The notes beneath the pieces are model-generated. The model saw only the letters and a program-made list of their open reading frames with translations, was not told where the DNA came from and did not search any database. A DNA stretch of 64,000 nt from assembly GCF_044704955.1 (NCBI RefSeq), contig NC_091986.1, positions 90,706,001 through 90,770,000 on the forward strand, in the 5' to 3' direction. The DNA comes from Pristiophorus japonicus (Eukaryota). Made by a program: the position numbers and the translations under genes. Positions 7,705 through 62,649 of the stretch are shown here, one piece after another (the first letter of the stretch is position 1; each line of letters opens with the position of its first letter).

Positions 7705-7800
7705 GTATTGCATCAGTCGTCCACAGTACAAGACGTCATGTGGAATTTCCTCTTTAGTTTCATGCTGGAATTATTTGTTTAGTACCTGTGGAACAGGAAG
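7705..7800 (+). CDS. BIVM: BIVM coding exon (first visible): (W)[31 protein letters not shown](S)
   Basis: Polypyrimidine tract + CAG acceptor, GTATGG donor, phase 2/2; peptide nearly identical to vertebrate BIVM as recalled. Confidence 0.95.
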
Positions 7801-8210
7801 GTATGGTGACTTTTTCCAACATGAAGCATCAGTATCTTTGTTCTCTTAATTTTGAAATGGCCATTCTATTTGTTTTATGTACAGCATTCTGTGAAATGGC
7901 AATTTCTATCACAGTGTCTTATTATTTGTTACAATATTAAAATAATATTTTCTTGTGTGGTAGAATGAGTGTTCTACTTTTGATATTCTACTTTACCTGA
8001 TTCATTTTAAAGAATTGCAACTTGGGCAAAGTGGTGCAAAGGTGAATTGCATTGCGGAATAGTGGTACATGAGTTCACAGCTGCTACTTCATGCACTGTT
8101 TTCAGAGAGCAAAATACTGTAGATGTTGGAAATCTGAAATCAAAACTGAAAGGCTGAAAATATTTTGTAGGTCCGGCAGCATCTTTGGAGAGGAAAAGGT
8201 AGAGGTAACA

Positions 8211-8720
8211 GGGCTGAATTCGCGGCCCCTATGGGCATATACGAAGTGCACACGCGCCCGAAGAGGCCCCTCCGCAAGTTTAGGCATGCACAATGTACAA
8301 ATCTGACAGAAATGGGCATTCGCTGGCGGAGACTTGGGCTATTTGTCCAACCTCTGCCCAGTGAATGCCCGTGAAATTCTTACACCTGGTAAAAGCAGGC
8401 ATATGGCCTGCTTTCAGCATAAGACTTTTAAAGGACAGAAAAATAAAAAATGTTCAATAATTTAAACATTTAATAACCTGTGAAATAAGGTAAGTTTATT
8501 TTTAGACCCTTTAACATTTTTTTTAACATATTTAATTACATTTTTGTTTTAAATAATTAAATTCCATTTTGATTCATTTTAAATGTCATGTTTATGTATT
8601 TTTGGGTGTATTCCCATTCATGCTTACCGTGATTCCGTACATTCGGATTTCACTACAAGTATGAATGGGAATATCCGTACTTTGATTGGTTGGGCCGGCC
8701 CACATGATGCCAGAGATGCT
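8211..8720 (+). mobile_element. Harbinger-type MITE, family A (divergent copy, truncated by the CR1 that follows)
   Basis: Starts GGGCTGAATT; shares TAAGTTTATTTT, an AT-rich core, a hairpin (8610-8672) and GATTGG with the copies at 18753 and 52164. Confidence 0.6.
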
Positions 8721-8769
8721 TCTGAAACGTCTGCAGTGGGTAAGTTTAGTTAGTAGTCTAATAAATAGA

Positions 8770-11700
8770 ACATGGCAGGCCACCTCAGTCCTGTCGAATG
8801 CACATCCTGTGCCATGTGGGAAATTCAAGATGCTTCTCGTGTTCTGGACAACCACATGTGCAGGAGGTGCCGTCAGCTGGAGGAGCTCGAGCTCCGGGTT
8901 TTGGAGCTTGAGCAGCAGCTGGCATCACTCTAATACATCTGCGATGCAGAGAGCTACATGGATGGCACGTTTCAGGAGGTGGTCACCCCGCAGTTTAAGA
9001 GTGTGCAGGCAGAGAGGGAATGGGTGACTGCCAAACAGACAAGAGTAGTGCAGGTGTCCCCTGAGTGCATCTTGCTCTATAACCGGAATTGGTGAGGGCA
9101 ACGGTTCCTCTGGGGAGTACAGCCAGAGCCAAGGCGACGGCACCATTGGTGGCTTAGTTGTACGGAGTGGGGGTGGGGGGGTGGGGTGGGGGGAGGACAA
9201 AGATCAGGAAAGCAATGGTGAAAGCGGATTAAATAGTTAGGGGAACAGATAGGCATTTCTGCGGCCGCAGACATGACTCCAGGATGATATGTTGCCTCCC
9301 TGGTGACAGGACCAGTTATGTTGCTGAGTGGCTGCAGGACATTTTGCGGGGGGAAAGGTGAACAGCCAGAAGTTGTGATCCATAGCGGTACCAATGGCAT
9401 AGGTAGAAAGAGGGATGAGATCCTGCAGGCAGATTTTAGGGAGCTAGGGAAAAGATTAATAAGCAGCACCTCAAAGGTAGTAATCTCCAGATTCTTCCTG
9501 GTGCTACACGCTAGTGGGTACAGAAATAGAAGGATAGAGCAGATGAATGGATGGCTGGTGCTGGAGGAAGGGCTTTAGATTCCTGAGACAATCTGAGCTT
9601 GCTACATACTGGCTACAAATCTGGACGGGTTGCAGCGCAACAGGGCATGGACCAATATCTTCGTGGTGGAGATGGGGGGACTGCTAGTGCTGTTGGGGAG
9701 GATTTAAACTAGCTTGGCAGGGGGATTGGAACCCGAGCATCGATTCAGAACGGAGAGAAGCAAAGCTGGAAATGGAAGGCAGAAAATTAATAAGTGAGTT
9801 TGGAAGGCAGAGGAAACAAAGGCTAGAAAGTAGATAACAAAAGAGTTTGGCAGTGCTTAATGGTATAAACTTCAGTGCAAGGAATATAATGAATAAGGTA
9901 GATGAGCTGAGGCCACAGATAGACACATGGAAGTATGATATCATAACTCTTACTGAAACATGGCTGTAAGAATGGTAAGAGTTACTCCTTAACATTCCTG
10001 GTTAGAGGGTTTTCAGATGAGATAGAGAGGGTGGTAAAAAGGGAGGGTGTCGCAATATTGGTTAACGAAACAATTACAGCTGGGTGTGGGGGGGGGGGAA
10101 TAATATGTTAGAAGGATCATCAAATGAGGCTGTATGGGACGAATTGAAGAACAAAAAAGGATCAATCACACTGCTAGGAGTGTACTATAGACTTCCAAAT
10201 AATCAGAGGGAGATAGAAGAGCAAATATGTAGGAACATTTCTGAGCAGTGCAAAAACAACAGGGTAGTTAGAGTGGGGGATTTTAACAACCTTAATATTA
10301 ACTGGGATAGAATTAGTGTCAAAGGTATAGAGGGTGCAGAATTCTTAAAATGCATTCAGGAGAACCTTTGTAGCCAGTATCTAGCAAGCCCAACAAGAGA
10401 GGGGGTGGTTCTGGACTTGGTTTTAGGGAATGAAGCTGGGCAGGTGGAAGGTGTATCAGTAGGAGAGCATTTTGGCAGTAGTGATTCTAATTCAGTTAGA
10501 TTTAGCATTTATGGAAAAGGACAAAGATTGACCAGGAGTAAAAGTTCTCAACTGGGGAAAGGCCTATTTTACTAAGCTGAGATGTGATTTAGCAAAAGTT
10601 GACTGGAAACAGCTACTTGAAAGTAAATCAGTGTCAGAGTAATGGGATGCAGTCAAGGAGGAGATAGTGAGGGTTCAGAGCAAATATGTTCCCTCAAAGA
10701 AAAAGGGTGGGATTCCCAAATCTAGAGCCCCATAGATGTCAAGGTGTATACAGGGTAGGATAAGACAAAAAATGGAGACTTATGTCAGATACCAAGAGCT
10801 AAATACTGCAGTTAGCCAAGAGGAGTATAGGAAGCATATAGGTGAAATTAAGAAGGAAATTAGGAAAGCAAAGAGAGGGCATCAATAAATATTGGCAAGT
10901 AAAGTCAAGGAAAACCTAAAGATGTTTTATCACTACAAGAAGAGTTGTGCCGATTAGAGACCAAAAAGGTAACCTTTGTGTTGAGGTGGAAGAAGTGGGT
11001 ATGGTTCTTAGTGAATACTTTGCACTTGTCTTCACAAAAGAGAGGGATGATGCAGACATTGTAGTTGATGAGATACACATAGTCAGAAAGGAAATATTGA
11101 GGGGTTTATTATCATTGAAATTAGATAAATCGTCAGGCCTGGATGAAATGTATTCCAGGCTGTTAAGAGAAGCAAGGGAGGAAATAGCGGAAGCTTTTCT
11201 AATTCTTTCTGGCTACAGGTGTGGTGCCAGAGGACTGAAGGACTGCTAATGTTGTTGCTTTGTTTAAAAAAGGAGAAAGGGATAGACCGAATCATTACAG
11301 TCCAGTCAGCCTAAACTTGGTGATGGGCAAATTATTGGAAAAAAATCTGAAGGAATATAAATCGGCATTTAGAAAGGCATGGATTAATCGAGAACAGTCA
11401 GACTGGATTTGTTAAGAGAAGTTCGTGCCTGACTAACTTGCTTGAATTTTTTAAGGAGGTGACAAGGAGGGTCGATGAGGATAGTGCATTTGATGTAGTC
11501 TATATGGATTTTAACAAGGCTTTTGGCTAAAGTCTCACATGGTACATTGGTCAGAAAAGTAAAATCCCTTGCAATCCAAGTGAAAGTGTCAAGTTAGATC
11601 CAAAATTGGCTCGGTGGCAGAAAGCAAAGGATAACGAGTGTTTTTATGACTGGAAGACTGTTCCAGTGGGGTTCCACACGGCTCCGTACTGGGTTCAACA

Positions 11701-15370: not shown

Positions 15371-15374
15371 CCTA

Positions 15375-15680: not shown

Positions 15681-15682
15681 AT

Positions 15683-16457: not shown

Positions 16458-16562
16458 TCTTCCTCCAATTACCCAGGAGGAAGCTTTACATATCTTGGGT
16501 TTCAACCAGCCCTATGAAGACATCAGATTTGGACCCTTCACGGGAAATGCAACACTAATGAG
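16458..16562 (+). CDS. BIVM: BIVM coding exon: (S)[34 protein letters not shown](R)
   Basis: TTTTCCAG acceptor, GTAAGC donor, phase 2/2; BIVM peptide. Confidence 0.95.
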
Positions 16563-19394: not shown

Positions 19395-22300
19395 TGTAAT
19401 GTCTGTAAGCTTGTAATGTTTGTAGCTCCACACTGTGGATGTGGACGTATTGTGTACTGCAAGTGCAGGGTTAATAATAAGCAGAACCAGGCAAATTTCC
19501 GGAGGTTTCTGAGAGAGCTGCCTGCTATGTTAGGAACTGTGTGTGCTGTGCTCTGTGAATATATCACATTTGGCGGCAAGATGGGATTTTTCGGATGATT
19601 TAAAGCTTAAATTTTGTTGGGGAAGGATTCAGCCAGCCGACAGAGAGACTTTGGAAGTTTCTGTCTTTGGAAAAAGCTTCAAAATCTGAGGTAAAATACA
19701 GCACACGGGTGTGAACGGCTAGAGATTAAAATGGCAGTTGTAATCAGACATTTGGGAGAATATAGACACGACTGGGAACGTTTTAAAGCATATGTGGATC
19801 GGCTAGAAATGTATTCCAGACAATGCAGTCCAGAACCGGGCTGTGTTGGAACGTAAGAAAGCGATCTTCTTATCGGAGGCAGGTCCGACATGGTACGAAA
19901 ACCTTGTAAATCTGCTTGTGCCTGACGAGCCAAAGGACACAACGCTTAGAGATTTTAACGAAGCTGGATAACCCCAAACCGTTAGAAATTGTTGAAAGCT
20001 ATTGTTTCGGGATTCGGAATCAAAAGACCGATGGAAGTATCAGTGATTACATCGTAGCATTAAAATAGCTATCGATGCACTGTAATTTTGGAAACTTTCA
20101 AAACCGAGCATTACGGGATCGTTTTGTTTATGAGGTGAAAAATGATGCGATCAGAGGGAAGTTATTGACGACGGATGACTTGACTTTTGAGATTGCTTGT
20201 CAGACAGCGAGGTTTATGGGCATGGCCGAACAATATTCCCGAGAATTAAATAATAATTACGGTCGTCAGTCAACCGAGGTAAATCACCTGCAGGTTCAAA
20301 GTAAAAGACGGTGGGGGCCCAAGGTCTCAGAAACTGAAAATTCTAACAGAGCGTCGAAGTCTTGCTATGGATGCCTGGGACAACACATAGCTCAAAGTTG
20401 TCCATACGTGAAGGCAGTGTTTCTTCTGCAGAAAGACTGGGCATCTTGCGAAGGCATGCCGACTGAAGGGTAAACCAGCTTTTAAAGCTATGAGTCCAGC
20501 GTTCAAAGCTATAAGTAGAAATCCCAAGAGACTATATAGCATGGAAGAAAAACAACAGGACGAGGAGATGTTAGAGTTACACGTCATCAGGAGCATGAGG
20601 TTAATGGACAGCGATTTGGAAAGCATCAAAATCCACATAAATGTTGTGGGATTCAAGATACCAATGGAAATTGGCATGGGTGCATCCGTGAGTGTAGTAC
20701 CGGAGTCACTATATCGCGACAAATTGCGTGGTTTCCAGCTGGAGAAATCCAAGCTAGAGCTGTGAGGCTACTCGGGAGAGAAAATTCCTGTGGTAGGCCG
20801 TATCACCGAATTATAAAGATCAATTTCAGAACTTGCCTCTAATATTAGTGAAAGGAGACAAGTCTGCCTTTCTAGGAAGAAATTGGTTGAGCTCACTGAA
20901 GCTGGATTGGAGTAAGATTTTCTGTGTGGAAGCGAGATTTTCATCAACGGATGAGGTTATCAAGAAGTATCCGAAGGTGTTCTGCGAAACGGGCAGTCAG
21001 ATCCAAGGCTTCAAGGCGAGTGTCAGGGTACAGAAGGACGCTAGATCGGTTTACTAAAAGCCACGTTCCATATCATATGCACTCAAGGAGAAAGCTGAGC
21101 AAGAACTCAAAAGACTAGAGACTGAGAACATTATTTATAAGATAGAGCGATGTAATTGGGCTACACCCATTGTTGTGGTACCTAAGTCCGATGGTAAGGT
21201 AAGATTGTGTGGTGATTATAAAGTAACCGTAAACCAGGTTCTAGAGGGTAATGTCCTCAATACATTGCCGAATATAGAAGATTTGTTCACAACACTGACA
21301 GGTGGTCAGATTTTCTCAAAACTGGATCTAAAAATGCTTAATTACAGCTTGAACGAGATGAGGAGTCCAAGTCATGTTTGACTATAAATACTCATCTAGG
21401 CCTATATCAATTTAATAGGCTACCGTTTGGAGTGTCTTCTGTCCCTGCCATATTCCATGGGGTGATGAACCAGATTTTGCAAGGTATTGAAGGGGTAGTA
21501 TGTTATTTGGATGACATACTAATTTCAGCACCAAATAGGCAAATTCATAATAACATATTGAATGAAGTCCTCAAACGGCTAGAGAAGCACAGAGTACGAG
21601 TGTCTGCTCATAAGTGTGAGTTATTTAAAAACTCAGTGGAGTACTTAGGGTAGAGAGTAGACAAAGATGGCTTACATCCAACCATGGAAAAATTGGATGC
21701 AATTAGAAATGCACCCACTCCCAGGAATGTCACTGAACTTCGTTCATTCTTGGGTCCTTTGAACTATTATGGGAAGTTCCTACCAAATTTGGCTACAATA
21801 TTACATCCACTGAATGAACTTTTGAAAAAACAGGTCCATTGGAAGTGGTCAAAAGAATGCGATACAGCATTCAAGGAGTGTAAAAGCAAATTGGTAGAGA
21901 GCACCATGCTATTCACTATGACATATCTAAGGAGATTAAGCTAGCATGTGATGCCTCTCCGTATGGAGTTGGGGCAGTGATCTCTCATGTATCACAGTGT
22001 GGAGGAGAGACCAATTGCTTTTGCCTCACGCACTCTCAGTGCCAGTGAGAGTAATTATGCACAAATTGAAAGGGAAGCTTTGGCATTAATTTTTGGGGTC
22101 AAGAAGTTTCACAGACTTGTATAGTCATAAGTTTACCATCGTTATAGACCATAAGCCCCTAACAACTATCCTCCATCCAAAGTCCCCAGTTCCAACATTA
22201 GCTGCAGCCCGAATGCAGAGATGGACTTTGATTTTGTCAGCATATACATATGATATTGAATACAGACAATCAGCTGATCGCAGTAATGCTGATGCAATGT

Positions 22301-24068
22301 CTAGATTGCCTTCCCCATCACAAGTTACACCCGATAGGGAAGTGTTTTATTTTTCATACATTGATGAACTGCCAGTCACAGCTGAAGAGATTGGTAGAGC
22401 AACCAAACGTGACCCAGTGATGTCAAAGGTGTATGAGTATATTGTAAATGGATGGCCAAACCAGGTAACAGACAAAGATCCACATCCATTCTTCATTCGT
22501 AGGAATGAATTATCAGTCGATAAAGATTGTATCATGTGGGGTGCAATACCAAATAACTTCAGGTCCAAGTTATTAGGAGACCTCCATGACCAGCACCTGG
22601 GAATGTGCTTGACCAAGAGTTTTGCATGCAGTTATTTATGGTGGCCAGGTCTTGATAAAGATATAGAGTACATCGTGAGTCAGTGTACGACATGTCAATC
22701 AGTAAGCAAGCAACCACAACCAGTACCATTACAGCCATGGAAATGGCCTCCCAGGGTGTGCCAAAGGCTACATATTGATTTTGCTGAGTTAGAAGGACAA
22801 CAATTGTTCATTGTGATTGATAGCCATTCGAAGTGGGTTGAGGTGTTTCCAATGTGGAAAATAACAACAAGTAAAACATTGGACATTTTACAAAAATTAT
22901 TTTCTTCATTTGGCCTCCTTGAAGAAATTGTTTCGGATAATGGACCACAATTTCGTTCAGAAGAATTTGCACAATTCACAAGAAAAAATGGTGTGAAACA
23001 TACCAAGGTTCCACCATACCATCCTGCTTCGAATGGTGCAGCAGAGCGCACTGTACAAATTGTAAAACGTGCCCTCATAAAACAAATGTTAGATCCAAAT
23101 CCAAGGAAACGACAGTTGTCATTGGATGTCAAATTGGCTAATTTTTTGATTACATATCGAAATACTCCTCATACAACTACTGGTAAAACACCAGCAGAGT
23201 TGTTTCTCAAATGACAGCCACGAACCAGATTCTCGTTGTTAAAGCCAAATTTGGCACAGTCTGTAGAAGAGACACAATTAAGACAGAAAGAGAATCATGA
23301 TAGAGGTAGAGTAAAAGAGAGAAGTGTGAAATTAAACCAGAAAGTGAGAGTGAAGAACTATCATCATAAATGATTAAAGTGGTTACCCAGAAGAGTGGTG
23401 AAGATATGTGGTCCTCGCACATATTTGGCAAAGGTGTTTGATAATGGACAGGTTAGGTTTGTTCATATTGATCATATTTTACCTACAGACATGGAAGGAG
23501 TTGAAGGTGGGAATGATTCAATTATTTCTGACTCATCACATAGTTTTGATGCACCAGTAACAAATCCTAAATCCAATGTACTGGAATCAAACCCAGGAGA
23601 GAATCAGAATGAAAGTCTGAGTCCGAGTCAGGAAAACAAACAGCCTGAAGTTAGAGTGAGTTCAAATGAAAATCAAGGAAATTCCGTGGAGGAAAACGTT
23701 CCTGAGGATGAGCCTCGAATGAGTTTAGATTCAACACCATGTTCGAGAGCGAAGGTATCCTCTTTGAAACAGAAAACAAGTGGTAAAGTTAAATTTGTAA
23801 ATATGGAAAAAAAATGTTTATATCCTGTGTTATGTATAAACATGATAGTTATGTATGATGTTTGTTATGATGGCTTCTTCATTAAGGAGGGAGAAGTGTA
23901 ATGTCTGTAAGCTTGTAATGTTTGTAGCTCCACACTGGATGTGGACATATTGTGTACTGCAAGTGCAGGGTTAATAATAAACAGAACCAGGCAGATTGCC
24001 GGAGGCTTCCGAGAGAGTTGCCTGCCATGTTAGGAGCTGTGTGTGCTGTGCTCTGTGAATATGTCACA
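19395..24068 (+). mobile_element. Full-length degenerate Ty3/Gypsy LTR retrotransposon (Mag-like)
   Basis: LTRs 19395-19568 and 23897-24068 (TG...CA); TSD CTTGA; PBS TGGCGGCAAGATGGGA (tRNA-Ser-like); PPT AAGGAGGGAGAAG; domain order gag (Zn knuckles), PR, RT (YLDD), RNase H, integrase (SDNGPQF), with many stops and frameshifts. Confidence 0.95.
22093..23214 (+). pseudogene. Gypsy pol RNase H-end/integrase ORF remnant
   Basis: DHKPL; HHCC zinc finger (LHDQHLG...CTTC); HIDFA; VSDNGPQF; SNGAAER. Confidence 0.9.
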
Positions 24069-27260: not shown

Positions 27261-27469
27261 ACCATCTTAAATCACAATTTAGCAAATAAATTGCTGATTG
27301 CAGCAGATTTAATTTTAATATTTTTTTATTATGTGAATTCTTCTTCACGGCAAAGATTAAGAGATGACCAACACTTTCTGTTTCTGTTATTATGTCAATG
27401 CCAGAGTGTGTTTCATCAGCAATCAACTGTTCTTTTCTTTAGTAAATTTCCTGTGATCAGCCGCTAGCG

Positions 27470-28440
27470 TTAAACAACTGTTTACAATATACATAGAGGG
27501 GACAGAGTGTAGTGTAACAAAATTTGCAGATGACACAAAGATTAGTGGGAAAGCGGGTTGTGTAGAGGACACCGAGAGGCTGCAAAGATATTTAGATAGG
27601 TTAAGCGAATGGGCTAAGGTTTGGCAGATGGAATACAATGTCAGAAAATGTGAGGTCATCCACCTTGGGAAAAAAAACAGTAAAAGGGAATATTATTTGA
27701 ATGGGGAGAAATTACAACATGCTGCGGTGCAGAGGGACCTGGGGGTCCTTGTGCATGAATCCCAAAAAGTTAGTTTGCAGGTGCAGCAGGTAATCAGGAA
27801 GGCGAATGGAATGTTGGCCTTCATTGCGAGAGGGATGGAGTACAATAGCAGGGAGGTCCTGCTGCAACTGTACAGGGTATTGGTGAGGCCGCACCTGGAG
27901 TACTGCGTGCAGTTTTGGTCACCTTACTTAAGGAAGGATATACTAGCTTTGGAGGGGGTACAGAGACGATTCACTAGGCTGATTCCGGAGATGAGGGGGT
28001 TACCTTATGATGATAGATTGAGTAGACTCATTGGAGTTCAGAAGGATGAGGGGTGATCTTATGGAAACATTTAAAATAATGAAAGGGATAGACAAGATAG
28101 AGGCAGAGAGGTTGTTTCCACTGGTTGGGGAGACTAGAACTAGGGGGCACAGCCTCAAAATATGGGGGAGCCAATTTAAAACCGAGTTGAGAAGGAATTT
28201 CTTCTCCCAGAGGGTTGTGAATCTGGAATTCTCTGCCCAAGGAAGCAGTTGAGGCTAGCTCATTGAATGTATTCAAATCACAGATAGATAGATTTTTAAC
28301 CAATAAGGGAATTAAGAGTTATGGGGAGCGGGCGGGTAAGTGGAGCTGAGTCCACGGCCAGATCAGCCATGATCTTGTTGAGTGGCGGAGCAGGCTCGAG
28401 GGGCTAGATGACCTACTCCTGTTCCTAATTCTTATAAATC
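27470..28440 (+). mobile_element. 5'-truncated CR1 LINE
   Basis: ORFs 27628..28056 and 28031..28252 ([13 protein letters not shown]); 3' UTR and tail. Confidence 0.9.
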
Positions 28441-29623: not shown

Positions 29624-29718
29624 ATGGTTCAGGCAGCTTAATGAGAATTTTCATATGAGAGGCTGTTCCTATGTTCTGTACAAACCCCACGGGAAAAATA
29701 GAACAGCTGGAGAAACTG
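29624..29718 (+). CDS. BIVM: BIVM coding exon: (R)[31 protein letters not shown](A)
   Basis: Pyrimidine tract + CAG acceptor, GTATAT donor, phase 2/1; BIVM peptide. Confidence 0.95.
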
Positions 29719-30179: not shown

Positions 30180-33100
30180 TATCTTCTCTCTTCTGAATGT
30201 GTTGAGCTCTGCTGGGTACAGTTCCATGCGCACCATTCAGTGTCTTGCCTAACTGCCGATTATTCATATGTGAGCTTTGACAGTGTGGGGGATGTCACAG
30301 CCAAGCATGATCTTGCTCTCACACAAGTGCACTTGGAAACATAGAAACATAGAAAATAGGTGCAGGATAGGCCATTCGGCCCTTCGAGCTTGCACCGCCA
30401 TTCAATGAGTTCATGGCTGAAAATGCAACTTCAGTACCCCATTCCTGCTTTCTCACCATACCCCTTGATCCCCCTTGTAGTAAGGACTACATCTAACTCC
30501 TTTTTGAATATATTTAGTGAATTGGCATCAACAACTTTCTGTGGTAGAGAATTCCACAGGTTCACCACTCTCTGGGTGAAGAAGTTTCTCCTCATCTCGG
30601 TCCTAAATGGTTTACCCCTTATCCTTAGATTGTGACCCCTGGTTCTGGACTTCCCCAACATTGGGAACATTCTTCCTGCATCTAACCTGTCTAAACCCAT
30701 CAGAATTTTAAACGTTTCTATGAGATCCCCCCTCATTCTTCTGAACTCCAGTGAATACAAGCCCAGTTGATCCAGTCTTTCTTGATATGTCAGTCCCGCC
30801 ATCCCGGGAATCAGTCTGGTGAACCTTCGCTGCGCTCCCTCAATAGCAAGAATGTCCTTCCTCAAGTTAGGAGACCAAAACTGTACACAATACTCCAGGT
30901 GTAGCCTCACCAGGGCCCTGTACAACTGTAGTAACACCTCCCTGCCCCTGTACTCAAATCCCCTCGCTATGAAGGCCAACATGCCATTTGCTTTCTTAAC
31001 CACCTGCTGTACCTGCATGCCAACCTTCAATGACTGATGTACCATGACACCCAGGTCTCGTTGCACCTCCCCTTTTCCTAATCTGTCACCATTCAGATAA
31101 TAGTCTGTCTCTCTGTTTTTACCACCAAAGTGGATAACCTCACATTTATCCACATTATACTTCATCTGCCATGCATTTGCCCACTCACCTAACCTATCCA
31201 AGTCACTCTGCAACCTCATAGCATCCTCCTCGCAGCTCTCACTGCCACCCAACTTAGTGTCATCCACAAATTTGGAGATACTACATTTAATCCCCTCATC
31301 TAAATCATTAATGTACAATGTAAACAGCTGGGGCCCCAGCACAGAACCTTGCGGTACCCCACTAGTCACTGCCTGCCATTCTGAAAAGTACCCATTTACT
31401 CCTACTCTTTGCTTCCTGTCTGCCAACCAGTTCTCAATCCACGTCAGCACACTACCCCCAATCCCATGTGCTTTTAACTCTTGTGTGGGACCTTGTCGAA
31501 AGCCTTCTGAAAGTCCAAATACACCACATCAACTGGTTCTCCCTTGTCCACTCTACTGGAAACATCCTCAAAAAATTCCAGAAGATTTATCAAGCATGAT
31601 TTCCCTTTCACAAATCCATGCTGACTTGGACCTATCATGTCACCTCTTTCCAAATGCGCTGCTATGACATCCTTAATAATTGATTCCATCATTTTACCCA
31701 CTACTGATGTCAGGCTGACCGGTCTATAATTCCCTGTTTTCTCTCTCCCTCCTTTTTTAAAAAGTGGGGTTACATTGGCTAACCTCCACTCCATAGGAAC
31801 TGATCCAGAATCTAATGAATGTTGAAAATTGACTGACAATGCATCCGCTACTTCCAAGGCCACCTCCTTAAGTACTCTGGGATGCAGTCCATCAGGACCT
31901 GGGAATTTATCGGCCTTCAATCCCATCAATTTCCCCAACACAATTTCCCGACTAATAAGGATTTCCCTCAGTTCCTCCTTCTTACTAGACCCTCTGACCC
32001 CTTTTATATCCGGAAGGTTGTTTGTGTCCTCCTTCGTGAATACCGAACCAAAGTACTTGTTCAATTGGTCTGCCATTTCTTTGTTCCCCGTTATGACTTT
32101 CCCTGATTCTGACTGCAGGGGACCTACATTTGTCTTTACTAACCTTTTTCTCTTTACATATCTATAGAAACTTTTGCAGTCCGTCTTAATGTTCCCTGCA
32201 AACTTCCTCTCGTACTCCATTTTCCCTGCCCTAATCAAACCCTTTGTCCTCCTCTGCTGAGTTCTAAATTTCTCCCAGTCCCCGGGTTCACTACTATTTC
32301 TGGCCAATTTGTATGCCACTTCCTTGGCTTTAATACTATTCCTGATTTCCCTTGATAGCCACGGTTGAGCCACCTTCCCTTTTTTATTTTTACGCCAGAC
32401 AGGGATGTACAATTGTTGTAGTTCGTCCATGCGGTCTCTAAATGTCTGCCATTGCCCATCCACAGTCAACCTCTTAAGTATCATTCGCCAATCTATCCTA
32501 GCCAATTCACGCCTCATACCTTCAAAGTTACCCTTCTTTAAGTTCTGGACCATGGTCTCTGAATTAACTGTTTCATTCTCCATCCTAATGTAGAATTCCA
32601 CCATATTATGGTCACTCTTCCCCAAGGGGCCTCGCACAACGAGATTGCTAATGAATCCTCTCTCATTACACAACACCCAGTCTAAGATGGCCTCCCCCCT
32701 AGTTGGTTCCTCGACATATTGATTTAGAAAACCGTCCCTTATGCACTCCAGGAAATCCTCCTCCACCGTATTGCTTCCAGTTTGGTTAGCCCAATCTATA
32801 TGCATATTACAGTCACCCATGATAACTGTACCTTTATTGCATGCACGCCTAATTTCCTGTTTGATGCCCTCCCCAACATCACTACTACTGTTTGGAGGTC
32901 TGTACACAACTCCCACTAACGCTTTTTGCCCTTTGGTGTTCTGCAGCTCTACCCATATAGATTCCACATCATCCAAGCTAATGTCCTTCCTAACTATTGC
33001 ATTAATCTACACTTTAACCAGCAATGCTACCCCATCTCCTTTTCCTTTTATTCTATCCTTCCTGAATGTTAGTTATTGGGGATCAGGAGTGGGAACTCGG

Positions 33101-38018: not shown

Positions 38019-38151
38019 CTGAAGGAGCTTTAATGAAGTTAACTCAAGGACTGAAAGATGAGTCTATGGCCTTTATCTACCATTGCCAGAACCATTACTT
38101 CTGTCCTATTGGTTTTGAGGCGACCCCTTTAAAGGCATCCAAGGCATTTCG
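38019..38151 (+). CDS. BIVM: BIVM coding exon: (A)[43 protein letters not shown](R)
   Basis: TTGCAG acceptor, GTGAGT donor, phase 1/2; BIVM peptide. Confidence 0.95.
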
Positions 38152-39359: not shown

Positions 39360-39443
39360 AGGAAAACTCCCCCTTGATGAAATGGAATTTTGGATTTTAA
39401 TAGGTGAACCAAGTAAGAAACATCCAGCCATTCACTGCAAAAA
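39360..39443 (+). CDS. BIVM: BIVM coding exon: (R)[27 protein letters not shown](K)
   Basis: Pyrimidine tract + CAG acceptor, GTAAGT donor, phase 2/2; BIVM peptide. Confidence 0.95.
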
Positions 39444-39969: not shown

Positions 39970-40240
39970 GGAGAAATGCTAGCTGCTAACCGCGATGTCA
40001 CCGGGGGTGGGGGTGCGGGGGGGGAGGGCGGGGTGGGGTGCTACGCAGAGCGACTGGAGAAATGCGAGCTGCTGGCCGCGATGTCACAGTGGAGGGGGGG
40101 GGCGCTACGCAGAGCAACCGAACGCAGCATCGGTGGGTGTGAGAAATGCAAGCTGCTGGCCGTGATGTCACCGGGGTGGGGTGGGGTGGGGAGGGTAGAG
40201 AGAGAGAGAAATGCTGCCCGTGATGTCACCGAGGCTGGGG
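39970..40240. repeat. About 4 degenerate GC-rich tandem units (GAGAAATGC.AGCTGCT..CCG.GATGTCAC...) upstream of the transposase
   Basis: Motif recurs at about 39971, 40057, 40141 and 40206. Confidence 0.7.
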
Positions 40241-40423
40241 GTGGGGGGGTAGGGGGAAGGAGAGGAGGCAGGCAGGTCACAAGACCCGGGGGTGGGGGGG
40301 TGACAGGGGGGGGTGGAGGAGAGGACAAAGGACCTTTGGGTGTGGTCCATCTGGAGAGAGAGAGAACTGCAAACCTGTGCTGTGCTGCCTGCTTTGACCT
40401 TCTTTGAAAGTTTAACTTTAAGT

Positions 40424-41610
40424 ATGGGGGCAGTACTCACAATGCCATACCTTTTGCGAGAGTTCTGCATCATTGTGCTACGTAGGAGACAATTGATTAG
40501 AGCTCATCACATCAGGAGCATCAGAACCCGTAGGCTGCTGGGCAGGAGGGCTTACCCAGCTCGGCAATTTCGAGTGAGGCATTCTTACCTGCACCTGAGT
40601 GATGCAAAGTGTGTCAGAGGCTGTGTTTCCGCAAAGAAGTTGTCCGTAAGATCTGTGACTTGCTGAGACCAGACCTACAGCCGAGAAGCAGCAGGTGGAC
40701 TGCTTTGTCAGTTGAAGTGAAGGTTACAGCTGCACTTTCCTTCTATGCCTAGGGATCGTTTGAATCTACAACTGGAGATGTGTGTGCCATCTCTCAACAG
40801 GCAATACATGTCTCTAGTCGCCAGGTCACGGCTGCACTGTATGCACAGAGGAAAGACTTCATCAAGTTCCCAATGACCGCCCAAGCAATGTATGAGCGGG
40901 CTGTGGTGTTCTCAAGGATCACTGGCTTCCCAAAGGTACAGGGCTGCACTGCGAGCACCTTTGGAGGATACTGAGATGTACAGGAATAGAAAAGGCTTCC
41001 ACTCCATTAATGTGCTGCTCATGTGTGACGACATGCATCGCATCATGTCAGTCGATGCACGATACCTTGGCAGCACCCATGATGTGTTCATCCTACGCGA
41101 CAGCTTTATATCTGAAATGTTTGAGCAGCAGCCATAAGGGAAGAACTGGCTACTGGGAGACAAAGGGTACGGCCTCACCACCTGGCTCATGACTCCCCTA
41201 TGCGTAACCCGGACGGAAGCTGACCATCAACACAACAAGTTGCACATTGCGACGCGTAGCATCATAGAGAGGACCATTGGCATCTTGAAACCGCGTTTCT
41301 GATGCCTGGACCATTCCGGAGGCTACTTGCAATACGCCCCTGAGATTCTCGGTCAATTCACTGTTGTGTGCTGCATAACTTAGCCATCATGAGGCAGCAG
41401 CAGCTGGTATTGGAGGAAGGCCCACCTGAAGAGAGAGTGGCTCATGATGATGGTGTGGAAGATGTAGGTGGCAGAAGGAGGATGAGGAAACCATGCAAGT
41501 ACCTGAGGCCGGAGCAGGACGTTGGAGGAGGGCGGGCCACTGTGCCCTCTTAACGATTGCTCGAGCCTTGCGCCAGCAGCTCATTTGTGAACGCTTTAAT
41601 GATGACTGAG
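40424..41610 (+). pseudogene. Harbinger (HARBI1-like) DDE transposase pseudogene
   Basis: KVTAALSFYALGSF; GFPKVQG; YRNRKGFHSINV; GSTHD; LLGDKGY; IERTIGILK; frameshifts, stops, and loss of the IDCTH segment. Confidence 0.9.
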
Positions 41611-44444: not shown

Positions 44445-47032
44445 TATAAATTGGCCAGAAAAACCAGCAAACCAGAGCACTGCGAGAATTTTGTAATACA
44501 GCAGAGGAGGACAAAGGAGGGGGAAAATAGAGTATGAGAGGAAGCTTGCTGGAAAAATAAAAACTGACTGCAAAAGCTTCTATAGATAAGTGAAAAGAAA
44601 AGGATTAGTGAAAACAAACGTAGGTCCCTTGCAGTCAGATTCAGGTGAATGTATAATGGGGAACAAAGAAATGGCGGACTAGTTAAACAAGTACTTTGGT
44701 TCTGTCTTCACGAAGGAAGACACAAATAACCTTCCAGAAATACTAGGGGACCGAGGGCCTAGTGAGAAGGAGGAACTGAAGGAAATCCTCATTAGCCGGG
44801 AAATTGTGTTGGGGAAATTGATGGGATTGAAGGCCAATAAATCCCCGGGGCCTGATAGTCTGCATCCCAGAGTACTTAAGGAAGTAGCCCAAGAAATAGT
44901 GGATGCATTGGCGATTATTTTCCAACAGAGTCTTGACTCTGGATCGGTTCCTATGGACTGGAGGGTAGCTAATGTAACACCACTTTTTAAGAAAGGAGGG
45001 AGAGAGAAAACGTGTAATTATAGACTGGTTAGCCTGACATCAGTAGTGGGGAAAATGTTGGAATCAATTATTAAAGGTGAAATAGCAGCACATTTGGAAA
45101 GCAGTGACAGGATCGGCCCAAGTCAGCATGGATTTATGAAGGGAAATCCCGCTTGACAAATCTTCCAGAATTTTTTTGAGGATGTAACTGGTAGAGTGGA
45201 CAAGGGAGAACCAGTGGATGTGGTGTATTTGGACTTTCAAAAGGCTTTTGACAAGGTCCCACACAAGAAATTGGTGTGCAAAATTAAAGCACATGGTATT
45301 GGGGGTAATGTACTGACGTGGATAGAGAACTGGTTGGCAGACAGGAAGCAGAGAGTCAGGATAAACGGGTCCTTTTTAGAATGGCAGGCAGTGACTAGTG
45401 AGGTGCCGCAGGGCTCAGTGCTGGGACCCAAGCTATTTACAATATACATTAATAATTTGGATGAGAGAATTGAGTGTAATATCTCCATGTTTGCAGATGA
45501 CACGAAGCTGGGTGGCAGTGTGAGCTGTGAGGAGTACGCTAAAAGGCTGCAGGGTGACTTGGACAGGTTAGGTGAGTGGGCAAACGCGTGGCAGATGCAG
45601 TATAATGTGGATAAATATGAGGTTATCCACTTTGGTGGCAAAAACACAAAGGTAGAATATTATCTGAATGGCGACAGATTAGGAAAAGGGGAGGTGCAGC
45701 GAGACCTGGGTGTCATGGTACATCAGTCATTGAAAGTTGGCATGCAGGTTCAGCAGGCGGTGAAGAATGCAAGTGGTATTTTGGCCTTCATAGCAAGGGG
45801 ATTTGAGTATAGGAGCAGGGAGGTCTTACTGCAGTTGTACAGGGCCTTACTGAGGTATCACCTGGAATATTGTGTTCAGTTTTGGTCTCCTAATCTGAAA
45901 AAGGACATTCTTGCTATTGAGGGAGTGCAGCGAAGGTTCACCAGACTGATTCCTGGGATGGCAGGACTGACATATGAGGAGAGACTGGATCGACTGGGCC
46001 TGTATTCACTGGAGTTTAGAAGGATGAGAGGAGATCTCATAGAAACATATAAAATTCTGACGGGACTGGACAGGTTAGATGCAGGAAGAATGTTCCTGAT
46101 TTTGGGGAAGTCCAGAACCAGGGGACATAGTCTAAGGATAAGGGGTAAGCCATTTAGGACTGAGATGAGGAGAAACTTCTTCACCCAGAGAGTTGTTAAC
46201 CTGTGGAATTCTCTACCGCAGAGAGTTGTGGATGCCAGTTCATTGGATATATTTAAGGGGGAGTTAGATATGGCCCTTACGGCTAAGGGGATCAAGGGGT
46301 ATGGAGAGAAAGCAGGAAAGGGGTACTGAGGGAATGATCAGCCATGATCTTATTGAATGGTGGTGCAGGCTCGAAGGGCCGAATGGCCTACTCCTGCACC
46401 TATTTTCTATGTTTCTATCCAATGTGAGAACAGTTAGTGAAGTGACATAAACAACAAAAACAACAACAGCAAAGAAAGGCTGCACCCATCTCTCATCCCC
46501 CTTAGTCGAAAGCCGCCCACTGTGCTTGGTCTTGGGCTCCACGACCCCTGCCCGCAGGCGGTGGCGCAATGTTTCTGGGGTACACACCAAGATTCTTCTT
46601 TCTAACATCTCGGCCACTGGGCACCTCTTGAGGTTGGGTGGGTGTCAACGTCGCGTGACAAGTTGGAGGGACCAGGCGGCAAGCTGGAGGCCGCGGCCTT
46701 GGCCTGTTCAGAGCTTGGTGCGGGAATTGGAGTGGGAGTGGCAGTTGATTCCGTCAATGGGCACGAGGTCTGGGTGTGTTCCCTTATTGCAGCAGCTAAC
46801 TCAGACATTCCCTCCCTCATGGCCTGTGTCATTTCAACTGTCGTCCTTTCCACTACCTCTGACATTCCATCTCTTATGGCCACCATTTCCTCACTGATGT
46901 TAGCGGACGTGGTTCCCATTTCTCATGCCATTACTGTTACTTCTCCCGACATTCCCACTACCTCCTCAATCAGCCCAGTTATGGTGTCCAGGAGTGATCG
47001 GGTAAGCTCAACGTTCTCCCCACCCAATTCCA

Positions 47033-48549
47033 TCATCTGAACCACATCTGTTGCATCCTGCATCCCAGGAGAGCGTGGTCCATGTCTCCTTCCCCTCCCC
47101 CTGGATCTGGCTCGCGGCATCCCACTGGGAGGTGCACTCTGGGACTTGGGACCCTGGGTGTTCCCTGCTGGTTTGCACCAGCACCACCACCACCACTGCT
47201 GGGACCTGTAACTTCGGAAGGTGGGGCCGCAGGTATGCAATGCTGCGGCACAACACCACCACCACTGGGACCTGCAACCTCGACGGTGGAGGCATGGGTG
47301 TGCAATGCTGTGGCACAACACCACCACCACTGGAACCTGCAACCTCGACGGTGGGGCCACGGGTGTGCAATGCTGTGGCACAACACCACCACCACTGGAA
47401 CCTGCAACCTCGACGGTGGGGCCACGGGTGTGCAATGCTGTGGCACAACACCACCACCACTGGAACCTGCAATCTCGACGGTGGGGGCATGGGTGTGCAA
47501 TACTGTGGCACAACACCACCACCACTGGAACCTGCAATCTCGACGGTGGGGGCATGGGTGTGCAATACTGTGGCACAACACCACCACCACTGAGACCTGC
47601 AATCTCGACGGTGGGGCCACGGGTGTGCAATGCTGTGGCACAACACCACCACCACTGGAACCTGCAATCTCGGACGGTGGGAAACCATAGAATGTCGAAC
47701 CACTAATCACGGAAGAGCCTGGCAAGTGAGATATGTTGACCTCCTCAAGATTCAGTAGAAGACTCCTGTCATCGAACCCCTCCCGCATCCACTCAAAGTG
47801 CCCCTCACGCCCATGTTGTTGTGGAGGGTTACTCTCCTCTTCAGGCTCGTCCACGTCTGAATCTTGATTTGGATCATCAAGAAGATTGTCCTCAAGTTCT
47901 GCAACATATAACAGAACAGTGAAATGGTCAGCAGCAGAGGAGGGGGCAGGATGGGTGGCATGGTAGACTCACACATAGCAGGCCAGGCAGCAGGTTGATT
48001 TGAAGGGCGACGATGATTTTTCATGACTTACCCACTTCCTCATCTGTGGGCCCAGCTTGAGCAATACTGATGGTTTTTCTCCAGGCAGGACCCACCAAAG
48101 CAGCGACCCTCTCTTCCAAGGGTGTCAGTGGGTGCAGATTTGCTGGTCCTCCTCCTGTTCTAGTTGTTTCCCTTTTGTTGTGAGACAGTTTCTTCTGCAA
48201 AGATTAAAATGCAACTTTTTAGAGAGCGTGTCTTTCTGCTGGGTGGGACATATACAGATGGTCACATTTACAATTGAAATTACATTGAATAAATGGAAAT
48301 ATTACTTACACTAACTACTTGACCAAGGTCCTGCCACTTCGTTTTACACTGCCTTCCAGATCTTTTGTTGATCACCAATCCGCAGAATTCTTCTGCAACT
48401 TCATTCCAGCATTTCTTCATCTCTTTGGGTGGCACTTTTGTGTGACCTCTGCTGGTATCCAGGTGCTGCCATCTGTTCTCAATGACAGTAACCAGTGACT
48501 CGACTTCGTCAGGCAAGAAATTCTTTGTTCTTGGTGTACGTTGCTGCAT
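47033..48549 (-). CDS. Harbinger Myb/SANT-like DNA-binding protein, spliced (exons 48549-48310, 48194-48032, 47898-47033; about 422 aa open; native C-terminus frameshifted)
   Basis: RTKNFLPDEVESLV...RW...CWNEVAE...QCKTKWQDL trihelix/MADF-type domain; GTAAGT donors and CAG acceptors with matching phases; KRETTRTGGGP linker; further coding-like sequence to about 46600 in a shifted frame with a stop at 46923. Confidence 0.75.
47207..47680. repeat. Minisatellite: one 66-bp unit, six 65-bp units and a partial unit
   Basis: Unit starts at 47207, 47273, 47338, 47403, 47468, 47533, 47598 and 47663. Confidence 0.95.
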
Positions 48550-49059
48550 TATTGCTGCAACTGCTCGGAGACACTAACAGCACTTTTGCAATGCTCTGAG
48601 ACACTTTTCCACTGCACTTAATCAAACTATGATTTTTAAAAAGACACAGTCCTCTGAGACACTTAACAGCACTTTTGCAATGATCCCAAACACTTTTCCA
48701 GGCATGCAACAGTTAATTTCAGCAAACAACACAGACAAGACATTGCTGCTTGCATTCAGCACTTAATTCACTTCAGAGCTCGCCTTCCAGCACGTAATGA
48801 ATAGCAGCTGCAATGCACTTTAAAAATGGGTGAGTGCCAAGTTTCGGCGCTATTGCGATGCGCGCACATCGGGCCGACACCACTGCGCATCCGCACTTCA
48901 GAATGCACGCCATGTTGGAACTCCAGGGACTCAGAAGAGCGGACAGGATGGGGCGACTTTTTTCCGGCACCATTTCCAGCGCGCAAAGTCGCCGCACTTA
49001 AGGTAAGTGCGCCGAAAAAAGGGATTGGGCAAAATTGAGACCCATATAAATAGACGACA

Positions 49060-53523: not shown

Positions 53524-55200
53524 GGGCTGGAAATTCAACAGGTTTCTGCCCATTTACTGCCATTTTTGGGTGAATAAAGTAATTTACCGCCGTTTTATCG
53601 CGGTTTATGGGCTGTAAACGCGATGCACTAAATGTATCGACGCAGCGGAAAATTTGCCAGTGGTTATCCGCCAATGGTTAAAAAAAAATATGGCTGACCC
53701 TTTTTTTTAACCATTTTTATGATAATCTTTGTGCATGGACTTCCAATAGAGTGGAGATAATAACTTTAAAATGGCCTTCAAACTCAAAGTATTGTGCAGA
53801 AGGATAATCAAAGTATTACGTGCTATGTTGGATAATAGCAGTAATTGGTCAGATTGCAGACCTTCAAATGGGTCATCTAGTCTGGTTAATGCATTCCATG
53901 GTGTAAGCTGGATATCACCATTTTTACCGCTGGCCAAAAAACCCGCAGCGAAAAATCAAGTCTTGCCTGCTCGGACCCATGACGCACCCAGCGCTAATGA
54001 CGCCATTTTGAAAAACGGAGCGGAAGTTCAGTGCATAAAAGGATTTTGAGAGAAGACTGCATTTTACACAGGAGCTTTATGTGAGTTCATAGTTCGTTTT
54101 TAAGGCTTTTTGAGCACATTGGAGGACATTTGAGGATATTTAAAAGAATGGGGCCTATAATATCTGCTAATAATGCTTGCTACTTTTTCTATGTATCATC
54201 AGAATAGAGCTAGAAGAAGGTTTATTCAAGAGCATTATGGGCGTAATCAAAGAGCTTGCAGACTTATGGGGAGGAGGCCTTACTCCCCTCGAGTTTTCAG
54301 GGGACAACGCTCATACCTGCACCTGTCTAAGGCACAGTGCATTAGAAGCCTGCTCTTTCAAAAAGAGGTCGTCACAGAGATATGCCAGCTCATAAAGGCA
54401 GACCTACAGCCTACAAGCAGGAGGAGGGCAGCTCTGCCCGTCGAGGTGAAGGTGACTGCGACACTTGCCTTCTATGCCTCCGGCTCCTTTCAGACATCAA
54501 CAGGGGACATATGCTTCATCTCATAATACGCTACACATCGCTGCATTTGCCAGGTGACTACTGCACTGTACGCACGCTGGATGGACTTTATAATCTTCTC
54601 AACAGGGAGGCACAGAATGACTGGGTTTTGCACGAATTGCTGGCTTCCCCAAGGTTCAGGGTACCATTGACTGTACACACATCGCCCTGCGAGCACCTTT
54701 TAGAGAATCCAGAAGTTTACTGAAACTGAAAGGGATTCCACTCCGTGAACGTACAGATCGTCTGCAACCATACGCAGCGCATCATGGCAGTAAATGCGCA
54801 GTTTCCAGGGAGCATCCATGATGCTTTCATCTTGCATGAGAGCAGTGTCTCTGACCTGTTTGAGCGTCAGCCACAAGGCCGCAGCTGGATACTGCGGGAC
54901 AAAGGTTACGGCCTCACCACCTGCCCTCATGACTCTCCTTCGGACCCTCAGACAGAAGCTGAGCATCGCTACAATAACAGCCACGCGCAATATCATCGAA
55001 AAGACAATTGGAGTACTCAAGCGGCGCTTCCAATGCCTGGACCACTCTAGAGGCAGCCTGCAATACTCCCCTGAGCAGGTCACTAAGTTCACTGTGGTGC
55101 GCTGCATGCTATACAACGTAGCCATCATGAGGGGGCAGGAATTGCCACTGGGGACTGCAGGACCACCTGAGGAAGAGGAGGATGAGGAGACTGGTGATGA
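53524..55200 (+). mobile_element. Second Harbinger element, left end plus transposase pseudogene (about 54148-55200), right end lost
   Basis: Starts GGGCTGGAAATT; VKVTATLAFYASGSFQ; GTIDCTH; GSIHD; DKGY; IEKTIGVLKRRF; acidic tail; frameshifts. Confidence 0.9.
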
Positions 55201-60339: not shown

Positions 60340-60512
60340 ATCTGTTCATTATCACATTGCTGTTTGTTGGATCTTGGTGTGTGTAAATTTGCTGCTGGGT
60401 TTCCTATATTATAACAGTGACTACACGTCAAAAGTACTTCATTGGCTGTAAAACGCTTTGGGACATCCTGAGGTTATGAAGGTTGGTATATAAATGCAAG
60501 TCTTTTTCTTTC
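60340..60512 (+). mobile_element. SacSINE1/DeuSINE-like 3' tail
   Basis: CATTATCACATTGCTGTTTG...AAAAGTACTTCATTGGCTGTAAAACGCTTTGGGAC...TATATAAATGCAAGTC, matching the recalled consensus; a weaker copy lies at about 29190-29320. Confidence 0.65.
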
Positions 60513-60833
60513 TAAAGGAATTGTATACCCAAATTCTCCTAAAAAGACTGGAACCATTGCATAGCTAATTCTCTGTATAATTGTCTCTATAGGACATCCA
60601 ATTCAAATAAATCCAGTTATTTAATTGAATGTTTTAAGCTATGCTTTATCATTAACTTGTGTTGATTTTGTGATTGGAAATCTGAAAGTATTTCAATTGC
60701 TGTGCTGAGATAATCTGAAGTGTGGTTGGTTTCTTACAAAAAGGATATAGATTTTCTTTGCAGTTATTGCAAATGATCAGAGTTGTAATAATTATGTATC
60801 CACTAAAACAATGACTATTATTTCTAACTTTAG

Positions 60834-60930
60834 GTGGGCAGACATAGTGACAGACCTCAACACTCAGAATCCTGAATACCTTGATATTCGAAATCCTGAA
60901 AAGGGGATACAATACAGAAAAACCAAAAAG
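60834..60930 (+). CDS. BIVM: BIVM coding exon: (K)[32 protein letters not shown]
   Basis: TTTAG acceptor, GTATCA donor, phase 2/0; BIVM peptide. Confidence 0.95.
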
Positions 60931-62343
60931 GTATCAAAGATATTAGATATCAGCACACAATTTTTTAGGAATGTATCTGTAGTGTGATGAATGATAACTT
61001 AATTAAATAATCTTAGTTTGTACTTGTGCTGTGAATTATAAGGTTATTAACGTGCATCTCTGTAAGAGATGGTTATGATATGTTTGATTTTGAGTTAACC
61101 TTTCACGTTTTGCTGTTCCTGGAAACTGTAAGGGCCAGTTTTAAAATCCCCCTCTATTCATAGTGAGTTTGTTTAAATTTTGCTCCAAGGTTATTTTCTA
61201 AGTTTTCCATTAACATGAAAATTAATATACTGTGGGTCAAATTTTAGGTTCAGTTTGTCCCAGAATTTCGGGAAAGAGCTGAGTCCTGCAGGCAGTGTCA
61301 GATTTAGGAGTAATAGATTATATGCAAAATAAAATTTACCAAATAGTTGCTGGAAAGCCATGAGCTGATCTTTGTGAAATAGGAAAGCATGACCTGGGAT
61401 AGTTTATGTCCGAGTGTGTGCGACTGGTACCTGTGGAACTTACTGTAGTAAAACTTGAATCTACTGTACAGATCTAGTATAGTTTGCAGTGATAGCTTTT
61501 TCCCTCTTCAACAACATATTGTTGAGGTTTCCTCTTTTGTCCATTGACACACCAGTTAAATCTCAGTCTCTCTTACTGATTTTGTGGCAAGGATATATAT
61601 GCACAAGGATGACCAGGGATAACTCCAATATACTGCTGGAATCCAGCTGTTTAGTTACAAATGAAGATATTTAGTAAAATTATATGCAAAGGTTATAACC
61701 AATGATCACGATAATTCAGATGGGGTAAACATTAAGCGAAGCCAGCTTTTAACAAACCAACACATTATTTCAACTTATCAAACATCTGGGTTAACATCTG
61801 TTTTTGAGTAATCCTTGACCCATTTACCAGTTCTTCCAAATGGAAGAGCATTTATAGAAATAAACAACTTTTGTGAGGTGGAGAAATAAAATGGAGTAAA
61901 AAATAGTTACACTTTAAACTTGAAACATTGTTGTGTGTAAGATTTATATTTGAGTACCAAACAATGGAACTTGGCCTCCACACTTTTTTCTCTAGCAGGA
62001 ATCTTGCTTGCCTAGCGTGAGTAGAAACATCAGTATGTCCCTGTTGGCATTTCCTTCCTTCCAAGATGGAACACAATTCCTTTTATGCAACATGAAGACG
62101 ACTAGTAAAACTCACTCCATCTAGGCAAGCAAATTTCAATAATTTACAACCTTGTATTTGGGAACTGAGCACTGCTACTACTTAAGCTGCTGGATCAGTT
62201 TGGTGTGAATGTTTTAACATTAGTCATAATTAGTGCATCACTGCAGGGTGAGCTATACATTTAGCTTAACTGTATTAAAAAGCAATTATAATGGATCATT
62301 CTAAACATTGCCTTAATTATGGTTTGATTTGGTCTCTAATTAG

Positions 62344-62649
62344 GTCGGTGGAAACTTGCATTGCATAATAGCTTTCCAAAAACTGAACTGGCAAAAATTA
62401 AGCACTTGGATGATGAACATTGGAAATTTCAGATGTGAAACACGTTCAAAGGTATCAGAATGCAAGGCCAGTAACTCTGCCATTGGTCTGGAAAAGGTTT
62501 TAAATGATCATCATGAGCCGTCAATGAATGACAAGAATAACAGTGATAGATTTCAGCAAGCATCTGAGTGGAAACAAATCTCAAGTCCATACGAATACAG
62601 AGATGGTGGATCTCCTGAAAGTGAGACTGATGAAGAAAGTATTGAATGA
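62344..62649 (+). CDS. BIVM: BIVM terminal coding exon: VGGNLHCIIAFQKLNWQ...ESETDEESIE*
   Basis: TAG acceptor, phase 0; VGGNLHCIIAFQ matches BIVM; stop TGA at 62647-62649. Confidence 0.93.
   Translation, partial: VGGNLHCIIAFQKLNWQKLSTWMMNIGNFRCETRSKVSECKASNSAIGLEKVLNDHHEPSMNDKNNSDRFQQASEWKQISSPYEYRDGGSPESETDEESIE

Follow-up and report, generated by a model that had tools for sequence, protein, structure and literature searches.

What kind of protein does the gene BIVM encode, and what might that protein do? We addressed this question at the BIVM locus of the shark Pristiophorus japonicus, in a 64,000-nucleotide stretch of contig NC_091986.1 (positions 90,706,001 to 90,770,000 of the forward strand; assembly GCF_044704955.1), hereafter called the window. 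A first-pass annotation, made from the letters of this DNA, had proposed that BIVM carries catalytic motifs of the C39 or phytochelatin synthase (PCS) type and is a Cys-His-Glu hydrolase or transpeptidase. We conclude that the papain-like inference is right but already published, a chance that the annotation itself had raised. In passages of their survey, Ozhelvaci and Steczkiewicz 2023 (PMC10318531) name seven human proteins whose papain-like nature had not been recognised before; BIVM is one of them, assigned to cluster I and marked as active. The same passages state, from the authors' own model, that BIVM retains the catalytic triad and the oxyanion residue, and describe a positively charged pocket (supplement 3) in a possible enzyme of unknown function. 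With the fold and the triad already published, the finding is in itself a small addition. The available parts of that text give no residue numbering, ciliary link, Gln-x4-Cys spacing or second His/Cys cluster for BIVM, and judging by titles and passages we found no literature that joins the protease call with the ciliary observations. Added here are that second His/Cys cluster and the link of the protease call to a ciliary phylogenetic profile and a basal-body stain. The remaining value lies at the level of single residues: the predicted protease site is intact, and it offers positions to mutate in a human orphan that is probably a ciliary enzyme.

The BIVM gene and conservation of its predicted active site

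Seven exons of the window splice in silico, in frame, into a stop-free BIVM peptide of 304 residues that ends with TGA at 62647-62649. Every exon has an AG acceptor, and GT is present at all six internal donors. The coding exons are as follows.

7705 to 7800, plus strand: coding exon with the oxyanion Gln (7724-7726), the predicted nucleophile Cys (7739-7741) and a further conserved Cys (7709-7711).
16458 to 16562, plus strand: coding exon LPPITQEE...FTGN, a helical insertion following the catalytic helix.
29624 to 29718, plus strand: coding exon with WFRQ, a helix and not a strand in the model, and a conserved Lys (29682-29684).
38019 to 38151, plus strand: coding exon with Y-H-C-x-N-H-Y, holding the predicted catalytic His (38093-38095), a second conserved His (38081-38083) and a Cys (38084-38086).
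39360 to 39443, plus strand: coding exon 5 with the third triad residue Glu (39406-39408); its joint to exon 6 is present in contigs.
60834 to 60930, plus strand: coding exon 6 with an invariant Asp (60853-60855) and a conserved Arg (60889-60891).
62344 to 62649, plus strand: last exon, with the G-N-x-H-C strand (His 62359-62361, Cys 62362-62364), a poorly conserved low-confidence tail and the stop codon.

The length of the peptide, the HCIIAF strand (encoded from 62359) and the codons of the Gln, Cys, His and Glu all agree with the first-pass annotation. A database protein with the source label Pristiophorus japonicus (P0011) shows 100% identity with the peptide over 303 residues, and 14 further top matches of cartilaginous-fish type show 81-95%. 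The GT..AG joint between exons 6 and 7 occurs in contigs of four of four public runs, with exon-5 letters preceding exon 6; these runs come from three studies, two being presumably RNA and two of unknown kind. Protein identity is the support for the remaining four junctions. The window opens after the first ~209 BIVM residues, with two coding exons lying ~29.6 kb and 8 kb upstream, and ERCC5 exons begin ~109 kb downstream of the BIVM stop. All six matches of a BIVM query to the genome fell inside this locus. An exon query found 307 proteins, and all 120 of the matches listed were labelled PF28452, an assignment taken from precomputed labels, the local Pfam copy being without a family for the BIVM domain. 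We conclude that the gene in the window is BIVM, most of which is present, and that it belongs to PF28452 by sequence orthology and synteny with ERCC5. Human BIVM (Q86UB2; PF28452) is its orthologue, with the same motifs and nothing of substance different.

Conservation was assessed in an alignment of 110 rows (A1), consisting of 11 vertebrate entries and 99 representatives picked for coverage; residue numbers such as His154 and Lys121 are those of the coelacanth orthologue P0105. Gln, Cys, His and Asp/Glu were all kept in 92 of the 96 rows covering the four positions, which agrees with the invariance expected among orthologues. Of the four exceptions, two had Cys-to-Ser, one had Gln-to-Tyr, and P0304 was without Gln, Cys and His together. 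Counted over non-gap rows, Gln was present in 95/97, the nucleophile Cys in 96/99, the upstream Cys (7709-7711) in 89/97 and the catalytic His (38093-38095) in 108/109, and the third triad position was Asp or Glu in 110/110 (56 D, 54 E). Other positions were similarly constant: Asn96, the Asn of FTGN (107/107), Asp212 (107/107), Lys121 (108/110) and Arg224 (105/108). Searching representatives clustered at 50% identity yielded 559 matches, of which 150 were listed; 86 of these 150 cover the core, with counts of Gln 85, Cys 83, His 83 and Asp/Glu 84. Two vertebrate-dominated searches returned 183 proteins, and 146 of them extend across the core. The set is intact in 143 of these, and the other three are without exon 5. 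Primate, rodent, marsupial and monotreme entries share the motifs. None of 200,000 shuffled sequences matched a loose ordered motif pattern that had been composed after the sequence was seen; the real test of the motif set is conservation, not the shuffle count.

The annotation had given the range of the gene as cartilaginous fish to mammals. The motifs are indeed kept there, but the range proved too narrow, as conservation extends to flagellated protists. Ciliates and kinetoplastids are among the aligned homologues, and a further search, too small for mapping taxa, found 18 proteins, all PF28452, including molluscs and a nemertean. Thirty distant representatives were looked up and ten were named: Cyclidium, Paramecium, Leptomonas, Apiculatamorpha, Carpediemonas, Kipferlia, Pharyngomonas, Andalucia, Planoprotostelium and Seison. 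We take all ten organisms to be ciliated or flagellated. Weak searches with one pattern each found no prokaryotic homologue among 22 matches and no viral homologue among 21. Judged by its sequences, the family is pan-eukaryotic.

Three homologues carry another residue in place of the catalytic Cys: P0226 (Ser), P0285 (Ser) and P0304 (Gly). These may possibly be pseudo-enzyme paralogues.

Predicted fold and relation to known cysteine-enzyme families

For structure prediction, the coelacanth orthologue P0105 was modelled with AlphaFold in place of the window peptide. The predicted local distance difference test score (pLDDT) reached 90 or more in 231 of 333 residues, and the tail was of low confidence. 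In this model the core helix 46-59 begins with Cys46. A two-residue turn leads into strand 158-169, the second of the hairpin, whose first residue is His158, and Glu193 directly follows the third strand (185-192). Section 6 of PMC10318531, in the part available, gives Cys at a helix start, His on strand 2 and a polar residue after strand 3 as the canonical papain-like places. The best Foldseek match was the Nostoc PCS Alr0975 (E 1.8e-4). Comparison with VIA gave PCS at Z 15.1 (root-mean-square deviation (rmsd) 3.4, 166 aligned), followed by 22oc (Z 14.5), staphopain (12.7), PeiR (12.1), and C39-like proteins and UfSP (11-11.6). From their titles, we take the 50 entries listed to be papain-fold proteins. 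A divergent homologue of 262 residues, P0272, gave a similar model (pLDDT 90.9; PCS Z 14.9, rmsd 3.7, 170 aligned), and both models have the core helix followed by a four- to five-stranded antiparallel sheet. Searched by sequence, neither P0105 nor alignment A1 had a match among solved structures at E up to 10. With two high-confidence models, fold searches and the PCS profile match described below pointing the same way, we consider it nearly certain that BIVM adopts the predicted papain fold, as the annotation had proposed.

Two other readings of the model were rejected. The earlier His (38081) is not favoured as the catalytic residue; it sits on strand 1, and P0304, a single case, retains it but is without Gln, Cys and the later His. 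An immunoglobulin V domain, which would be a beta-sandwich with a Trp strand and a disulfide-forming Tyr-x-Cys strand, was also discarded: in the P0105 model, WFRQ is part of helix 96-109 and YHC belongs to the papain sheet. WFRQ and YHC are presumably the motifs that gave BIVM its name. As a separate observation, PDB entry 22oc ('P210 CD lyase'), which was released in March 2026, is level with PCS as the top structural match (Z 14.5 and 14.4).

Among known families, PCS (C83, PF05023, Alr0975) resembles BIVM most closely in layout, with the Cys helix, the hydrophobic strand plus acid, a W-x5/6-D-like helix and the final strand in the same order. A profile comparison with 42 PCS sequences gave 63% (E 6.9e-5) and placed Cys on Cys and Glu on Asp. 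The differences are substantial. Identity is 12-15%. The Gln-to-Cys spacing is x4 in 93/93 BIVM rows, whereas it is x5 in 40/41 PCS rows having both residues, and the modal distance from His to acid is 35 residues in BIVM compared with 18 in 42/42 PCS sequences and 16-18 in C39_2 and BtrH_N. The PCS arginine loop before the catalytic His is missing, the PCS consensus being NYLRKALGQEGGGH and the BIVM counterpart YHCQNH; within this loop, Arg152 of AtPCS1 (His-10) is described as essential in an excerpt of PMC3855540. After the acid, PCS reads DVARYKYPP with Lys/Arg-Tyr at Asp+5/+6, a feature not seen in BIVM (DPSRKHP). The GHFSPIG-like motif noticed by the annotation corresponds in part: the His aligns with that of PCS, as does the Gly-aromatic after it, but PIG is one residue off (Pro at His+4 in BIVM and at His+3 in PCS). 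No PF05023 match was found in 3 + 33 BIVM-family proteins, in scans where control PCS sequences scored 102-286 bits; a PCS search of the shark genome gave 0 matches, and its control query likewise matched nowhere. Membership in PCS was rejected on the missing PF05023 match, the x4 spacing, the absent arginine loop and the 35-residue His-to-acid distance.

BIVM shares a common core with C39 and C39_2 peptidases (PF03412, PF13529) and the pseudomurein endoisopeptidase PeiR (Z 11.0-12.7), but it is without a fusion to an ATP-binding cassette transporter and forms a larger domain with extra helices and hairpins. The best PF13529 match, in 1 of 33 family proteins, reached E 0.021 and 15.8 bits against a cut-off of 24, and hhalign against 26 C39_2 sequences gave 33% over 17 columns around the Cys helix only. 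C39 membership was rejected because the Pfam cut-off was not reached and a transporter domain is absent. Remote homology of BIVM to the acyltransferase domain BtrH_N is reported in passages of PMC10318531; our comparison with BtrH_N (PF14399) gave no match (probability 0.3%, with a shallow 8-sequence template).

Two further eukaryotic groups deserve comparison, the C78 (UFSP) and ACTMAP clusters being the neighbours of BIVM in language-model features (scores 0.90-0.95). ACTMAP (C19orf54), like BIVM, is a single-domain cluster I papain-like protein of eukaryotes with Gln-x4-Cys spacing, which in this shark genome reads Q-D-G-P-Q-C across an intron. It forms a separate family (BIVM proteins have no PF21646 match), it has a long loop before its His, and its substrate is known. 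To our knowledge ACTMAP has no ciliary profile. It was reportedly unknown until 2022, when it was shown to be an actin maturation protease. An excerpt of PMC13367750 describes this protease with Cys132 as nucleophile and a proven cytoskeletal substrate. ZUP1 and UFSP1-2 (C78, PF07910) resemble BIVM in fold (Z 10.0-11.9) and in language-model features. The Asp-Pro-His box that supplies the catalytic His of UFSP, a UFSP feature according to section 6 of PMC10318531 as available, is present in shark UFSP1 as DPH and absent in BIVM, which has G-[DE]-[PTV]-S (GEPS) there. A profile comparison with shark UFSP1 as single template gave no match (probability 0.2%), and BIVM had no C78 Pfam match.

Taken together, we conclude that BIVM is its own family, which is predicted to work like C39 and PCS enzymes and is a member of neither. 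The 'C39/PCS-type' label thus stands for the manner of working, and fails as a family assignment. For transpeptidase activity, the modelled fold match is the sole support.

Proposed mechanism, second His/Cys cluster and competing explanations

Conservation of the four residues and their placement in the models suggest that BIVM is very probably catalytically active. By analogy with the superfamily, His, oriented by Glu, would activate Cys; Cys would attack an amide bond while Gln stabilises the oxyanion; and water would then resolve the thioester. A site of action at the centriole or basal body is suggested by two results of others (PMC5850483): a phylogenetic profile that places BIVM among 274 predicted ciliary genes, and one antibody stain of mouse mIMCD3 cells that marks the base of the cilium. 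We lean towards a ciliary or centriolar protein as the substrate. The substrate may be acidic, given the positively charged pocket and the conserved Lys and Arg residues. As a whole, our proposal is a hydrolase with a Cys-His-Glu triad and Gln at the oxyanion hole, which would have a single acidic protein of the centriole or cilium as its target and cleave a peptide or isopeptide bond there. It is the leading explanation, and we hold it to be about as likely as not. As a functional analogy we prefer ACTMAP, which also has the Gln-x4-Cys spacing and is dedicated to the maturation of a cytoskeletal protein. If BIVM does process tubulin or a centriole protein, it would be a new enzyme for ciliary biology and a candidate for unsolved ciliopathies.

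Several observations weigh against this proposal. The automatic PCS profile alignment does not put His on His, so that the His assignment comes from strand position and motif register, and a second His four residues before the catalytic one is equally conserved. The well-conserved core positions comprise about five basic and four acidic residues, and because of this near balance the acidic substrate leans on the surface map in the available part of PMC10318531. HK2 and RPE1 cells showed no such staining of the basal body (PMC5850483), and the BIVM interactors reported in passages of PMC10318531 are mostly nuclear proteins and E3 ligases. Our own check on ciliated organisms covers 10 of the 30 distant representatives. 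In the literature we found no activity, substrate or knockout phenotype for BIVM, though proteomic and screening supplements may hold more. As a separate matter, an excerpt of PMC10167099 reports a weak genetic association with bronchopulmonary dysplasia (34 vs 32 infants).

The second cluster consists of residues nearly as constant as the predicted active site: in A1, His154 is present in 108/109, Cys155 in 102/109, His243 in 102/109 and Cys244 in 103/108. In P0304 the loss of the catalytic residues is accompanied by that of Cys155, His243 and Cys244, and G-N-x-H-C persists behind insertions of ~100-280 residues in six long, kinetoplastid-like homologues. If the strands follow the usual order, the pairs of His and Cys would neighbour each other beside the catalytic His, where they may shape a primed-side pocket or bind metal. 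An extended and doubtful form of our proposal makes BIVM an ancient cilium-linked processing protease, a centriolar counterpart of ACTMAP that would trim the acidic tail of tubulin or another centriole protein (possibly as a missing tubulin-code eraser), with this cluster as a regulatory site binding substrate or metal. Low-complexity insertions of ~100-280 residues precede the last core strand in the long homologues P0249, P0255, P0259, P0261 (Leptomonas), P0269 and P0273.

The constancy of these four residues (94-99%), together with the three representatives that lack the catalytic Cys, could also fit a non-catalytic or metal-binding scaffold in which Cys and His are kept for zinc or structure. 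We consider this very improbable, as Gln, Cys, His and acid stand at canonical positions and are kept together in 92/96 rows, and the exchange of Asp and Glu at the third position fits a catalytic carboxylate. If BIVM is an enzyme, it could act as an isopeptidase in the manner of ZUP1, UFSP or ATG4, with ubiquitin or a ubiquitin-like modifier as its target. UfSP (Z 11.4-11.9) and ZUP1 (Z 10.0-10.1) are among its fold matches, the C78 clusters are its nearest non-BIVM language-model neighbours, and interactors listed in the available part of PMC10318531 include TRAF3, TRIM26 and TRIM41. UfSP and ZUP1 nevertheless rank 3-5 Z units under PCS and 22oc, the shark UFSP1 profile and the Asp-Pro-His box are both unmatched in BIVM, Pfam scans of BIVM proteins showed no ubiquitin-binding domain, and a basic pocket would fit the basic ubiquitin tail poorly. 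Such an isopeptidase is unlikely.

A PCS-like activity would take off the C-terminal glycine of small molecules of the glutathione type, with transpeptidation, or that of glycylated tubulin; in the latter case BIVM would be a missing deglycylase. PCS ranks first structurally for both models and comes out ahead in the three profile comparisons, an Arg or Lys three residues past the acid is common to the two, BIVM has a ciliary profile (PMC5850483), and deglycylases were still called unidentified in 2024 in an excerpt of PMC11244163. Set against the failed PCS membership, we regard this activity as distinctly improbable. It is also quite unlikely that BIVM is an active papain-fold enzyme with a nuclear or cytosolic, non-ciliary substrate, or an acyltransferase or deamidase instead of a peptidase. 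Localisation in one of three cell lines (PMC5850483) and, in passages of PMC10318531, the nuclear interactors and BtrH_N homology would agree with that idea, but the phylogenetic profile tracks cilia and the shallow BtrH_N profile gave no match.

Fused gene models, exon 5 and intron repeats

Nine cartilaginous-fish database models, among the 120 matches listed, fuse BIVM with ERCC5; the region concerned is 62640-62649 of the window and ~48-117 kb past the window end. In P0011 the join lies just 5' of the BIVM stop codon. A human BIVM-ERCC5 read-through is listed in an excerpt of PMC6862657. The fused model looks like an annotation product, because no GT donor is present at the join and the contigs of four of four runs continue past the BIVM stop into the 3' untranslated region; a rare read-through is also possible.

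Exon 5 (39360-39443; 84 nucleotides, same phase at both ends) encodes the catalytic Glu. It is missing in frame in the three exceptions among the 146 core-spanning proteins (Polypterus and two Carassius entries), and a BIVM without it, if real, would be predicted to be an inactive isoform. P0001 and P0002 have insertions at the 5' side of exon 5.

The BIVM introns hold, among others, fragments at 20069-23898 (plus strand), 27457-28249 (plus), 31477-33006 (minus), 40171-41226 (minus), 44683-46326 (plus) and 54346-55047 (plus). We take these to resemble endonuclease and reverse transcriptase of CR1/L2-type long interspersed nuclear elements, a broken Gypsy-like long terminal repeat element and pieces of Harbinger-like transposase. 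A region of tandem repeats (46926-47706), in which both strands have open frames, adjoins a fragment at 48283-48573 (minus), which is presumably Harbinger-like Myb/SANT.

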